Virus record (IMG/VR): IMGVR_UViG_2909251562_000001
From: a virus
Lineage: Duplodnaviria; Heunggongvirae; Uroviricota; Caudoviricetes
Length of the DNA: 49,376 nt
Reading direction: 5' to 3' (one strand)
Position 1 is the first letter of the stretch. The number at the start of each line of letters is the position of its first letter. The notes beneath the pieces are model-generated. The model did not search any database and had not been told where the DNA came from. It was given only the letters and a program-made list of their open reading frames with translations. Of this stretch, positions 10,676-14,741 are shown in pieces. Made by a program: the position numbers and the translations under genes.

Positions 10676-11230
10676 TCAATTATCTAAAATTGTGCTAAAT
10701 CTTTTTATTACCATTAAGAACGTTATAACAGTGATAAAAAAGGATGCATAGGATAAAAAGCTAACAATATATGCAGGTGCGCGAAAATACCATTTCATTA
10801 AATCTACTGCATTGTCAGGCAGGAAATATATTATCACTGAAAATATAACCAATACTATTGAAGTTAATATTGCATAAGCGACGTTGTGGCATAACTGCTC
10901 ATATATGGTTTTGTTAGTGTTTAATGATATCAATTTGTCTCGGGATTTGTTTCCTTCAATTATGTCTGATATCTTAGTGATGGTTTTTTGTTTTTGTTCA
11001 TAAATCATTATTACTGCACTCATTAATAGTGCTGTTGTAATAGCCCCGAAGTTAACGAAGACGGAAGCAATTGCCGGTTTCATTATTCCGTATGTCCAGC
11101 ACAGAACGAAAGAAAGAGATAACGGAACAATAAAATGTACGATAATGTCGCTCATCAACATTGTTCCACGCTGATCTGACATTGTTTTGTAGTGTTTTAT
11201 TATTACACCCAGCACATTTATTTTATTCAT
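10676..11230 (-). CDS. four-helix integral membrane protein (candidate effector of a two-gene module)
   Basis: 184 aa with four long hydrophobic segments. Its ATG overlaps the upstream gene's stop (ATGA). Very AT-rich. Confidence 0.7.
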   Translation of the reverse strand: MNKINVLGVIIKHYKTMSDQRGTMLMSDIIVHFIVPLSLSFVLCWTYGIMKPAIASVFVNFGAITTALLMSAVIMIYEQKQKTITKISDIIEGNKSRDKLISLNTNKTIYEQLCHNVAYAILTSIVLVIFSVIIYFLPDNAVDLMKWYFRAPAYIVSFLSYASFFITVITFLMVIKRFSTILDN

Positions 11231-12159
11231 ATAATCACCCCTTTGTTTCCGCTATGCAGTTCTAACAATATATCATTAGAAAGGTTTTTTATCGTGTCAT
11301 GAAGTGCTGTTAGATCAGGTATGCCTGTTAATGGGTCGATTTTTAAATCATTATCATCTAACTCTGCGGAAATTCCTTTTTTTAGTATGGTCTCATAATT
11401 GAAAACGACAGTCCGACTGCCGAGTTGTAAGCTTACTTTTATTGCATCACATTTATCTTCAATAATCTCAATGATGTTTCCTATATTCTTGTTTCTTAAA
11501 TCCCTGAAACTTCCGAACATGCCATTGTTTGCTTTTATTATTAAGTCTGTCTTGATGTTTGTTTTGTTTTGACCAAAGGAATCAGCAATGTCTTTTGGTG
11601 CTTTATATCCTTGAGCCTTAATTTGTTTTAATTCGGAATTGAGAATATATTGAGGGATTTTCTTATGATGTAATGGATTGATTCTTGCTTCGAGTTGAAA
11701 TTTGTTTTTTAGATATTCAGTGATAGAATCAGAAAGGACACCTCGAGCAGAAATATTATCGCAAGAGTGGAATGCAATAATTCCTTCTTCAAGGGTGTCT
11801 GGTAGGTATATTAAAATATAACGTTCTTTGAGTGTTACATCATAAGCAGTTGTCCTATAGTGGATTTTTTTGAGTTTTACATCTTTTATTTCACTGCTTT
11901 CTCCATATTTCCCAACTTTTATATAACCATATATAATTTTCTTTGAGTTATCAAAGTGAAGTTTAGCGTGTTGTTCCAGAGATATTTTAGTTTTGGATAC
12001 GCCAAACTCGATAGGGGTGTTTTTATATAGAGTAAAATAATCAACAAAAAGTTCATATGCCGTTTTTTTATTACTTAAACCCAATTCATTAAGTTTTTTG
12101 CTGGCTCGACTGCCTTTATGGGTCAATACGCGGAATGAATAGAAATTAACGCTGTGCAT
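11227..12159 (-). CDS. 310-aa protein of unknown function (candidate sensor/enzyme partner)
   Basis: Long AT-rich ORF, Lys/Ile/Asn-rich, no motif I can recognise by eye; translationally coupled to the downstream membrane protein. Confidence 0.7.
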   Translation of the reverse strand: MHSVNFYSFRVLTHKGSRASKKLNELGLSNKKTAYELFVDYFTLYKNTPIEFGVSKTKISLEQHAKLHFDNSKKIIYGYIKVGKYGESSEIKDVKLKKIHYRTTAYDVTLKERYILIYLPDTLEEGIIAFHSCDNISARGVLSDSITEYLKNKFQLEARINPLHHKKIPQYILNSELKQIKAQGYKAPKDIADSFGQNKTNIKTDLIIKANNGMFGSFRDLRNKNIGNIIEIIEDKCDAIKVSLQLGSRTVVFNYETILKKGISAELDDNDLKIDPLTGIPDLTALHDTIKNLSNDILLELHSGNKGVII

Positions 12160-12585
12160 GAAAAGTCCTTTTGAACATATAGGAGTATACTAGAACATAA
12201 ATAGATGCAATGCATAAAGGAAAAGCTACCGCAGGGCGAACTCACCCACCGATAACTCTTAACTGGTTGTTTGTAAAAGATAATACATAAATTTGGGTCT
12301 GTGTAAAGAGGTAAGCATCGTCAGGGCAAGGGAGATGTGTTAGGCAATATTGGTAAAATTTACGTTGAGGATAAAAACGGTTTGCGGGAAAAGGAGAGTT
12401 AAGTAGAATTGCTGCGGGTGCTTGAGGCTATCTGTCTCAGGCATGAACACCAAAAGGCAGATAGAGAAAAGCCCCAGTTAACATTACGCGTCCTGCAAGA
12501 CGCCTAACATTAATCTGAGGCCCAATCTATGTCTCACAAATGTAGGTTAGCCTCTTACGTGCCGAAAGGCAAGGAGAAGCAGGCT

Positions 12586-12741
12586 ATGAAGCAGCAAAAG
12601 GCGATGTTAATCGCCCTGATCGTCATCTGTTTAACCGTCATAGTGACGGCACTGGTAACGAGGAAAGACCTCTGCGAGGTACGAATCCGAACCGGCCAGA
12701 CGGAGGTCGCTGTCTTCACAGCTTACGAACCTGAGGAGTAA
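12586..12741 (+). CDS. hokD: Hok/Gef-family toxin (HokD/RelF-like)
   Basis: MKQQKAMLIALIVICLTVIVTALVTRKDLCEVRIRTGQTEVAVFTAYEPEE, 51 aa, matches the Hok family signature and E. coli RelF/HokD as recalled. Structured leader upstream. Confidence 0.85.
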   Translation: MKQQKAMLIALIVICLTVIVTALVTRKDLCEVRIRTGQTEVAVFTAYEPEE

Positions 12742-12808
12742 GAGACCAGGCGGGGGCGAAATCCCTCGCCACCTCTGATGTGTCAGGCATCCTCAACGCA
12801 CCCGCACT

Positions 12809-12831
12809 TAACCCGCTTCGGCGGGTTTTTT
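12809..12831 (+). terminator. rho-independent terminator (copy 1 of a 23-bp repeat)
   Basis: TAACCCGCTTCGGCGGGTTTTTT: hairpin plus T-run downstream of hok. Confidence 0.7.
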
Positions 12832-12832
12832 A

Positions 12833-12879
12833 TTGGTTGACAAAATTATGAATATGCACCAATATCTTGGTTGACAAAA
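12833..12879 (+). promoter_or_regulatory. tandem 13-bp direct repeats, each with a TTGACA -35 hexamer
   Basis: TTGGTTGACAAAA at 12833-12845 and again at 12867-12879, just upstream of the cassette's first gene. Confidence 0.4.
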
Positions 12880-12914
12880 GTCGTTTTTTGCACGGATTAG
12901 GCGGAGAAGTGTCT

Positions 12915-13508
12915 ATGCAGAACCATCCATTCCCTTGGGAGTTCTTTCCTGAGTTAACAGAGGAGCGTTTAACCATTATAGCTGAGGAGTTGCTCAGGAT
13001 ACAGGATATTACTCATGAGTTATTGTCATCGCCCTATGATGATAATTACACTCGTGGTGGTTGTACATTTGGGCGTCAGCGGCAGGCGTTGCTACAAATG
13101 TGCGTACGAAAGACATATGACTGGTTAAGACTACTTAATCCTGGCATGGATCTTACGTTTTCAATTGGGAATGTCCCTATTCGTTTCTTTACTGATGACG
13201 CAGATAACCCCAAGAAACGCGGTTTTTTCAAAAGAAATGATGCTGATCGACTCTTTGAGTCAGAGGAGACTACTCCAACTATGCATCGCTTTGTGGTTGA
13301 AAAGCCTGAATTTGAAGGCGAGGGTGGTAGAGTCATTTTTAATGGCTATAACGTGTTTGGTGAGATCGTGTCAACTTGGACATATGGTGCGGACCGTGTT
13401 GTTATGCTGAACTCTGTCGATGATGTACCTCCAGCACCGGTACCTATCGAACTAGAACCTATCAGTGCGTCTAAGACTGAGAAGGAAAAGAAACAAAATA
13501 GCAAATAG
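12915..13508 (+). CDS. 197-aa protein of unknown function (candidate toxin/effector)
   Basis: ATG 12915 preceded by GGCGGAG; no recognisable motif; 10 nt upstream of the XRE/ImmA gene. Confidence 0.6.
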   Translation: MQNHPFPWEFFPELTEERLTIIAEELLRIQDITHELLSSPYDDNYTRGGCTFGRQRQALLQMCVRKTYDWLRLLNPGMDLTFSIGNVPIRFFTDDADNPKKRGFFKRNDADRLFESEETTPTMHRFVVEKPEFEGEGGRVIFNGYNVFGEIVSTWTYGADRVVMLNSVDDVPPAPVPIELEPISASKTEKEKKQNSK

Positions 13509-13518
13509 TGGGTGAAAT

Positions 13519-14640
13519 GTGTTTAACGGTACTAATTTAAGACTTGCTCGTCTGTATCACGAGCTATCTCTGGAGCAGGTTGCTGAGAAGGTTGAAAAAA
13601 CACGCCAGTATGTACAGCGACTGGAGTCTGGTTCAGCTACTCCATCCCCAGAGCTTATAAATAAATTAGCCGAGGTTTTGCGCGTGAAGCCCGCCTTTTT
13701 CGAAGGGCAGGAACATTCTCCTGTTAATGAAGAGATTGTACATTTTCGTAAACGCGCCTCGACAAGGATGTCAACGAAGCTATCAACACTCGCTAAGGCT
13801 GAGTTTTATCGTCGTTTTATTGATGTATTTGAAGATAACCTTAATTTGTCACCTGTTCGATTTCCTGAATTTCGTGTCCATACACAAGAAGATATCGAGC
13901 GAGCGGCAGAAAAATGTCGTATTGAGTGGGGCTTAGGCTTTGGCCCAATTGAAAATATGACTCGCCTTGCCGAGAAACTTGGGGCGTTTGTTACTTCATT
14001 TGACTCCGTTTCGGATGAAGTAGATGCACTGTCTGTTCCTCTACGAAGGCCTTTTATTGTTCGAAATACAGCTAAAAATTCACCTTGTAGGCAACGCTTT
14101 GATATTGCTCATGAGGTTGCCCATTTGATTCTTCATGAAGGAATTTCTACTGGGGATAGATTAACTGAATCCCAGGCAAACCGTTTTGCCTCTGCTCTGT
14201 TGCTTCCCAGAACGTCGATGGCGAAATATTTTCCAAGACCTGTGGGGGGGAGGATAAATTGGCAGGGACTAAGCCAATTTAAGTTGACATGGAAAGTAAG
14301 TAAGGCTGCCATTGTTTACAGGGCTCATCAATTAGGACTTTTGACTGATGAGCAGTACAGAACTGCATTTATGGGGTTGAAACGGAAAGGGGAAGCTATT
14401 GATGAAAAAGAAGATTATCTAATCCCTCATGAGCGTCCTGAGTTATTCCGTCGGGCTTTATCGTTTTTATTTGAAGAGTTAGGATACGACCCACAGCGTA
14501 TAGCTGATGAAATGGATATAGAAGTGGACATTTTTTATGAGTTAGCAGGAGATGATCTTCCTGCGGTTCATGAACTGCCAGGAAGTGGTGATGTTGTTTC
14601 ACTACAATCTTACCGAACTCTTAGAGGCAAAATTCACTAG
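13519..14640 (+). CDS. XRE-family HTH fused to ImmA/IrrE-type zinc metallopeptidase (COG2856-like)
   Basis: N-terminal HTH (LSLEQVAEKVEKTRQYVQRLESG) and HEXXH motif HEVAHLILH in a 373-aa protein. Confidence 0.8.
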   Translation: MFNGTNLRLARLYHELSLEQVAEKVEKTRQYVQRLESGSATPSPELINKLAEVLRVKPAFFEGQEHSPVNEEIVHFRKRASTRMSTKLSTLAKAEFYRRFIDVFEDNLNLSPVRFPEFRVHTQEDIERAAEKCRIEWGLGFGPIENMTRLAEKLGAFVTSFDSVSDEVDALSVPLRRPFIVRNTAKNSPCRQRFDIAHEVAHLILHEGISTGDRLTESQANRFASALLLPRTSMAKYFPRPVGGRINWQGLSQFKLTWKVSKAAIVYRAHQLGLLTDEQYRTAFMGLKRKGEAIDEKEDYLIPHERPELFRRALSFLFEELGYDPQRIADEMDIEVDIFYELAGDDLPAVHELPGSGDVVSLQSYRTLRGKIH

Positions 14641-14643
14641 GCA

Positions 14644-14666
14644 TAACCCGCTTCGGCGGGTTTTTT
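14644..14666 (+). terminator. rho-independent terminator (copy 2 of the 23-bp repeat)
   Basis: Identical TAACCCGCTTCGGCGGGTTTTTT immediately after the XRE/ImmA gene. Confidence 0.7.
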
Positions 14667-14741
14667 GTTTTACGTATTCTGGTTTACAATCTACAGGCCA
14701 GCCTGAACAACTGGCACCTGCTGCGCCAGCAGAGAAAACCG

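Follow-up and report, generated by a model that had tools for sequence, protein, structure and literature searches.

The adjacent genes rmrT and rmrA most probably form a two-gene toxin-antitoxin or abortive-infection module of the RosmerTA type, which a lambdoid prophage carries in its nin region as a low-GC moron, with rmrT encoding the putative toxin and rmrA its antidote. We put the probability of this reading at roughly 85%. All positions given here refer to the window, by which we mean the whole stretch of 49,376 nucleotides that was analysed.

That RmrT would be toxic and would be neutralised by RmrA is argued by analogy, from the Vmi480/Vmi470 pair of Vibrio mimicus, from a strain-specific essentiality traced to an allele in E. 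coli E101, and from the essentiality of rmrA in other bacteria. A role in anti-phage defence would likewise follow by analogy, the only subtypes with demonstrated activity being those of OLC-716 and Kita, whose toxins are dissimilar in sequence to the RmrT of the window.

The gene pair, its boundaries and its control region

A first-pass annotation of this DNA had described a 197-aa open reading frame lying 10 nt upstream of a gene that fuses an XRE-type HTH to an ImmA/IrrE-type peptidase. This description is confirmed in all its parts: the stop codon of rmrT and the start of rmrA are separated by a 10-nt gap, RefSeq places both coding sequences at the same coordinates (in E. coli TW11681, which is 100% identical along the stretch), both Pfam domains are found in the second protein, and the motif HEVAHLILH occupies residues 198–206 of RmrA (nt 14110–14136), with HEVAH at 198–202. 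The pair does sit beside hok, as had been noted, since hokD (12586–12741) lies immediately 5' of it (Table 1). It was also correctly seen that the first gene has no recognisable domain, as a search of the 197-aa protein gave no Pfam or NCBIfam match. When 70 diverse relatives of RmrT were compared with Pfam at E≤1, only scattered single matches were obtained, none of them recurrent, and these are treated as noise. Because of the cluster numbers of the first reading frame and the conserved synteny (see below), we consider rmrT and rmrA to be real genes.

Table 1. Features of the rmrTA cassette and its borders, with positions in the window.
Feature	Position	Strand	Description and evidence
Intrinsic terminator of hokD	12809..12834	+	Left copy of a 26-nt direct repeat (D2); terminator scan, direct repeat
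Candidate promoter/operator	12833..12893 (modules 12837–12859 and 12871–12893)	+	Two tandem modules TTGACAAA-N10-TGCAC; inferred rmrTA promoter and operator for the RmrA HTH
rmrT	12915..13508	+	Putative 197-aa toxin component; start ATG; PADLOC PDLC03929, PHROG 5786, RefSeq WP_001179381.1
rmrA	13519..14640	+	Putative 373-aa antitoxin/regulator; start GTG; XRE HTH, M78 Zn-peptidase and C-terminal region; RefSeq WP_000481764.1
XRE-type HTH of RmrA	13537..13701	+	Residues 7–61; Pfam HTH_3, E 1.5e-12
Peptidase_M78 (ImmA/IrrE) of RmrA	13969..14325	+	Residues 151–269; Pfam E 8.3e-17; HEVAH at nt 14110–14124
Intrinsic terminator 3' of rmrA	14644..14669	+	Right repeat copy; terminator scan, repeat, K-12 Qin comparison

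The cassette is bounded by two terminator copies that are 96% identical to each other, and its GC content (about 43%) is well below that of the phage backbone (about 53%). Comparison with the Qin prophage of E. coli K-12 defines the same borders: homology extends over 12572–12830 (98.8% identity, comprising hokD and its terminator), ends at 12830, returns as the second terminator copy at 14644–14672 and resumes at 14725, upstream of a DUF968 gene. Within the nin region the cassette is flanked by hokD on one side and the DUF968/RusA/Q genes on the other, at a moron position with other low-GC cargo nearby. The pair had initially been thought to replace relBE. The gene order in K-12 Qin is relB-relE-hokD-rem-ydfU-Q, and the cassette, being downstream of hokD, therefore takes the position of rem; the relBE slot upstream of hokD is occupied in the window by two antisense genes of no assigned function, so that this part of the earlier interpretation has to be abandoned.

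The region 5' of rmrT contains a 13-nt exact direct repeat (D6), and each of the two TTGACAAA-N10-TGCAC modules opens with a perfect -35 hexamer. Two copies of the TTGACAAA...TGCAC motif are present in the 49-kb window, against an expectation of 0.02, and in related loci, including those of Variovorax and Methylomonas, the motif is found only just 5' of rmrT. In an alignment from nine genera its columns are invariant while the flanking DNA does not align. We interpret the tandem repeats as a probable promoter overlapping operators for the HTH of RmrA, an assignment that is based on the conservation of the motif and not on a consensus scan: a sigma-70 consensus scan upstream of rmrT yielded no promoter at threshold, because the candidate -10 element (CAATAT) is weak.

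Assignment to RosmerTA, distribution and the E101 allele

RosmerTA has been described as a Zn-peptidase antitoxin coupled to a toxin without assigned function, with a delta-rmrA mutant that could not be transformed (Millman 2022). The system is defined by its antitoxin, the toxins being heterogeneous (Millman 2022; Ernits et al. 2023, PMC10440598). RmrA of the window has the features by which such antitoxins are recognised, namely an M78 HEXXH Zn-metallopeptidase with an N-terminal XRE HTH, and the adjacent, co-oriented gene matches a catalogued RmrT model. RmrT aligns with PADLOC PDLC03929 over residues 1–197 of a 198-position model (E 5.5e-93), a model that is also matched by all 70 of the diverse RmrT relatives. 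RmrA matches PDLC03943 over its full length (E 8.2e-201) as well as 13 further RmrA models (14 in total). On these sequence grounds we assign the pair to RosmerTA, in a toxin subtype shared with Vmi480 and E101, a system that is already catalogued in PADLOC and DefenseFinder. The supposition that the protein or the system might be novel is thus contradicted, both by the full-length PADLOC matches and by a near-identical allele reported by Rousset et al. 2021. The more general proposal of a protease-linked toxin or defence module is essentially borne out, as the family consists of a toxin with an XRE/ImmA antitoxin and has anti-phage activity in other subtypes.

The verified RosmerTA system of E. 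coli OLC-716 consists of an RmrT of 239 aa and an RmrA of 370 aa (Millman 2022). Its RmrA, with sequences taken from the supplement of that study, is 31% identical to ours over 311 residues (E 2e-38). The two toxins show no significant similarity (BLASTP E 1.1; probabilities of 0.66%, 0.40% and 0.66% in three hhalign runs), and OLC-716 RmrT falls into a different PADLOC model (PDLC03935). As RosmerTA toxins are heterogeneous by definition, such dissimilarity is to be expected and leaves the membership of the window pair unaffected. Apparently colinear motifs in the two toxins, (T/S)RG..(F/Y)G, (D/E)LT and P..KK.G.F, were read by eye from non-significant alignments, and we make no claim of homology from them. 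A transitive link through other PADLOC RmrT models was likewise rejected, as a second model was reached by only one of the 70 relatives (E about 1e-3). Strains carrying the locus of the window are absent from the entries listed in the supplementary tables of Millman 2022.

Among 5,426 complete E. coli genomes, 23 have the full pair; it lies on the chromosome in every one of them, with at least 99.5% identity, and many of these strains are ETEC. For the RmrT family, about 80 clusters were counted at 90% identity, and the 423 representative clusters obtained at 50% identity consist almost entirely of stand-alone proteins of about 200 aa. The family is also found on 27 plasmids, in hosts ranging from Enterobacterales to Acinetobacter and Alphaproteobacteria. 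A tblastn search of RmrT against a phage collection returned a single distant match (29% identity), which implies that this subtype is rare among deposited phage genomes. To sample synteny, one genome per species was scanned, giving 41 loci from Gamma- and Betaproteobacteria. In 39 of them a homologue of RmrA (41–77% identity) is encoded directly downstream of rmrT on the same strand, with intergenic gaps from -4 to +45 nt, mostly 3–13 nt; the other two hold only truncated rmrT fragments. It had been suggested at the outset that the proposed module should be given up if homologues of the first protein never co-occurred with XRE/ImmA genes, a notion which the 39 paired loci decisively contradict.

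A close counterpart of the module has already been studied genetically. In E. coli E101, the strain-specific essentiality of clpP was traced to a putative TA module borne on a prophage (Rousset et al. 2021, bioRxiv 10.1101/2020.05.25.114553), with a toxin that lacks any predicted domain (E101_02645, WP_001179380.1) and its antidote encoded downstream (E101_02644, WP_000481765.1). The essentiality was suppressed by the conservative substitution T46S in the toxin or by loss of the prophage; three of four clpP-knockdown suppressors had lost the prophage and the cells survived, and transfer of the module made clpP essential in K-12 (Rousset et al. 2021). The E101 proteins are 33% and 42% identical to Vmi480 and Vmi470 of Vibrio mimicus, respectively (Rousset et al. 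2021).

The RmrA of the window differs from the E101 antidote at a single position (A343V), and WP_000481765.1 itself occurs at the locus of the window in four other complete genomes, partnered there by WP_001179381.1 or WP_001179382.1. The accession of the E101 toxin was not found at the seven loci inspected in complete genomes, where that of its partner was. RmrT of the window has a threonine at position 46, the site of the E101 suppressor. Given the partner accession, T46 and the consecutive accession numbers, we infer that the E101 toxin is a near-identical allele of the RmrT studied here. RosmerTA has already been linked to the essentiality of clpX and clpP in the literature: a 2025 preprint equates the E101 toxin with RmrT and reports an essential rmrA in three Pectobacteriaceae; clpX, according to the same work, is essential in no strains but those three carriers of RosmerTA. 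Carriers of the prophage in the window are predicted to be dependent on ClpP.

With a catalogued system and a near-identical allele that has already been analysed genetically, the discovery value of the locus is small. Its practical value is in annotation, as the RefSeq labels of the two products, in every genome inspected (mostly ETEC), still read "hypothetical protein" and "helix-turn-helix domain-containing protein". What the present analysis adds is incremental: a better annotation, a conserved operator-like motif, and a nuclease-fold hypothesis for RmrT.

The antitoxin peptidase and the predicted fold of the toxin

Among 39 orthologues of RmrA conservation is highest in the M78 domain, and residues H198, E199, H202 and E217 are invariant. 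E217, which we take to be the third zinc ligand, is part of an E..A..FA..LL.P motif that is typical of M78 peptidases. The invariance of the active-site residues indicates that the peptidase is under purifying selection and therefore presumably active. Outside the RosmerTA models, RmrA matches PADLOC capP (E 2.8e-17) and capH (E 4.9e-10) weakly, and along its length NCBIfam NF052239, which represents the spr1629 family repressor/antitoxin (E 4.8e-51). It is not placed in that equivalog family, as it scores 174 bits, far short of the cut-off of 335.

For RmrT, an AlphaFold2 model computed from 51 sequences (mean pLDDT 82, pTM 0.74) predicts a soluble protein of the alpha/beta type. In the first part of the model, two long helices (16–36 and 44–65) are followed by three strands (71–75, 81–84, 87–93); the second part has a loop and a short helix, three more strands (123–129, 139–145, 151–157) and a disordered, Lys-rich tail. 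The sequence profile of RmrT gave no match at E≤10 against all PDB chains. The models of window RmrT and OLC-716 RmrT have the order of secondary structure elements and the top PDB match in common. In our reading, both RmrT families probably have the same fold, with EcoRV/NaeI-type PD-(D/E)xK enzymes as its nearest solved relatives.

The pattern of conserved residues was inspected with this in mind. Close relatives of RmrT all have D42, R90, D94 and D95, and nearly all have D79, K101 and E129; across the wider family only P7, L19, D42 and P99 are at least 90% conserved, and D79 is lost. No catalytic motif of the D...(D/E)xK type with canonical spacing stands out among these conserved residues. 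The assignment as a nuclease is for us a lead and not a result. We tentatively consider that the RmrT proteins of the Vmi480/E101/window type and of OLC-716 are divergent PD-(D/E)xK-like nucleases of the EcoRV/NaeI type, and that RosmerTA may be a protease-gated nuclease which RmrA would process or hold and which ClpXP would remove; as it stands this is possible but doubtful. If true, it would explain the recurrent synthetic lethality with clpP and clpX. Weak as it is, the hypothesis is testable and may unify the RmrT families.

Proposed mechanism, alternatives and comparison with known systems

We favour a process in which RmrA would bind the TTGACAAA...TGCAC repeats, so autorepressing the operon, and would in addition bind and/or cleave RmrT, so neutralising it. 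In the cited work, the toxicity becomes manifest upon depletion of ClpP/ClpX. Free or processed RmrT would be cleared by ClpXP, the reverse of classical TA systems, where the host protease degrades the antitoxin. Infection by a phage would upset the balance between RmrT and RmrA, and the freed RmrT, possibly a divergent PD-(D/E)xK-like nuclease, would arrest or kill the cell.

As a mobile element carries the TA-like pair, and as the antidote gene is essential wherever its toxin is present, the pair might also be a pure addiction module, which would stabilise the prophage by post-segregational killing and have no anti-phage role; that the published defence assays concern other RosmerTA subtypes is in keeping with such an interpretation. 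We nevertheless regard it as very unlikely. Three of the four clpP-knockdown suppressors of E101 survived the loss of their prophage, and loss of the module was therefore not lethal under those conditions; furthermore, two other RosmerTA subtypes defend against phages, and the cassette, with other low-GC cargo next to it, occupies the position of a moron. The direction of toxicity could also be the opposite of that assumed, as in PD-lambda-2, where an Xre-peptidase fusion was toxic when over-expressed alone and was rescued by an upstream HigB-like protein. For the present pair such reversed roles, with RmrA toxic and the upstream protein as the antidote, are extremely unlikely: Vmi480 alone is lethal while Vmi470 alone is harmless (Luo et al. 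2015, PMC4671572), T46S in the upstream protein of E101 removes toxicity, and the gene that is refractory to deletion is rmrA and not rmrT.

A different kind of explanation would have RmrA act like ImmR/ImmA or CapH/CapP, i.e. as a protease-repressor activated by damage or by phage that derepresses the prophage or a neighbouring effector, with the 197-aa protein as mere regulated cargo. The weak homology of RmrA to capP and capH fits this, as does the conserved, operator-like tandem repeat that overlaps the -35 boxes, and regulation through HTH cleavage has been proposed for Rosmer-like antitoxins (Ernits et al. 2023, PMC10440598). We consider it unlikely as the primary function, since the prophage already encodes, at other positions, a LexA-family repressor and Cro of its own, and since rmrT and rmrA always occur as a pair with a probable promoter of its own, in contexts that are otherwise unrelated. 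Moreover, Vmi480 was still neutralised by Vmi470 when the two were expressed from a heterologous promoter (PMC4671572), which argues for neutralisation at a post-transcriptional level. A switch of this kind is compatible with the toxin-antidote module that we favour, as an additional layer of it.

Separate proteins serve as protease and repressor in ImmR/ImmA (ICEBs1), IrrE/DdrO and CapH/CapP, where they switch the transcription of an element or a defence operon; RmrA resembles them in combining an M78 HEXXH metallopeptidase with an XRE HTH, but both are fused in one protein that is paired with a toxin. A CBASS or integrase module under the control of the pair was not found in the annotation of the locus. 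An assignment as an ImmR/ImmA-type element regulator was considered and rejected in view of the fused domains, the position in the nin region, and the LexA-family repressor and Cro of the prophage. The spr1630/spr1629 pair of Streptococcus pneumoniae has a similar architecture, and its toxin is reported, as relayed in a 2025 preprint, to make ClpX essential; RmrA differs in scoring below the NF052239 equivalog cut-off for the spr1629 family.

Within RosmerTA, the RmrTA system of Gordonia phage Kita provides a narrow anti-phage defence (Ernits et al. 2023, PMC10440598). It is phage-encoded and has an antitoxin of the ImmA protease type, as in our case, but its toxin (node D5) depolarises membranes and has a predicted C-terminal membrane region, whereas RmrT of the window is predicted to be soluble and has no detectable sequence similarity to it. 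The OLC-716 system shares with the window pair the order of toxin and antitoxin genes and a homologous HTH + M78 RmrA; it differs in that its toxin lacks detectable sequence similarity to the RmrT of the window and that phage defence has been demonstrated for it.

In the Vmi480/Vmi470 pair of the V. mimicus island MGIVmi1, Vmi480 kills E. coli, Vmi470 neutralises it, and vmi470 could not be deleted alone (Luo et al. 2015, PMC4671572). The arrangement is the same as in the window, with the toxin gene first (198 aa), a 5-bp gap and a 362-aa antidote that combines an HTH with a Zn-peptidase. It is a distant orthologue, the likeness being known from the reported identities to the E101 proteins, and is carried by a mobilisable genomic island instead of a prophage. 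The E101 module, in contrast, is found at the same type of locus, likewise on a prophage and with a toxin that has no known domain, and the difference is allelic only, between WP_001179381.1 with WP_000481764.1 in the window and WP_001179380.1 with WP_000481765.1 in E101.

Boundaries of the rmrTA cassette

The rmrTA cassette, a RosmerTA toxin-antitoxin pair located downstream of hokD, lies between two copies of the hokD intrinsic terminator, which form a direct repeat of 26 nt and are 96% identical. As the window carries two copies of this terminator versus only one in the Qin prophage of E. coli K-12, the repeat suggests that the cassette was gained or exchanged by recombination at the terminator, or that it arrived with a copy of its own.

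Downstream of the cassette, window positions 14672-14725 were set against K-12 NC_000913.3 1644651-1644902. The rem gene of K-12 is missing from the window, and homology to Qin restarts only upstream of a DUF968 (ydfU-like) gene. A 90-aa ORF from this region is without annotation in K-12.

The window begins with the integrase of a lambdoid prophage, the integration site of which adjoins ompW, and probably covers most of that prophage. Its counterpart is found in E. coli TW11681 (NZ_CP035855.1, from about 844445). In the annotated TW11681 twin, a YdaT-family toxin gene adjoins a cro/cI-type gene that carries a frameshift. Downstream of Q comes a tRNA Ile/Thr/Gly cluster, and the lysis genes are followed by an IS66-family (ISCro1) insertion.

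Features in and around the rmrTA cassette (window positions)
Feature	Position	Strand	Remark
Antisense gene, 184 aa	10676-11230	minus	about 4 hydrophobic helices (by eye)
Antisense gene, 310 aa	11227-12159	minus	
Terminator repeat, hokD side	12809-12834		
RmrT residue 46	13050-13052		
Terminator repeat, distal to rmrA	14644-14669		
ORF, 90 aa	14742-15014		PHROG 1212 match (function unknown)

Variation in toxin and antitoxin

The change T46S, a suppressor of clpP essentiality in the near-identical module of E. coli strain E101 (Rousset et al. 2021), disarms the E. coli allele although it is very conservative, and serine is the natural residue 46 in several RmrT orthologues (e.g. P0051 and P0087, within DDNYSR). 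The RmrT of the verified OLC-716 system (Millman et al. 2022), which belongs to another toxin family, likewise has serine at the apparently equivalent TSRG position, in the register of a non-significant hhalign alignment.

In two of the 23 complete E. coli genomes carrying the pair, 2011EL-1370-2 and ETEC4090 (H36 and H37), the rmrA region is annotated as two hypothetical proteins, the match being one base shorter at 99.8% identity. RmrA fragments of 118 aa and 245 aa from E. coli were also retrieved by cluster look-up. For a toxin-antitoxin module, an apparently split antitoxin beside an intact toxin gene is unexpected.

An antisense gene pair upstream of hokD

Two overlapping genes on the minus strand (together 10676-12159) have a GC content of 33% versus about 52% in the backbone. 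Neither protein has a Pfam or PADLOC match, and they are assigned to PHROG 15676 and 15250, both labelled 'unknown function'. A plausible interpretation is an uncharacterised defence or exclusion pair in a moron position, with one cytosolic partner and one small membrane protein. The pair, which may be more novel than the rmrTA cassette, occupies the slot upstream of hokD where relBE stands in K-12 Qin.
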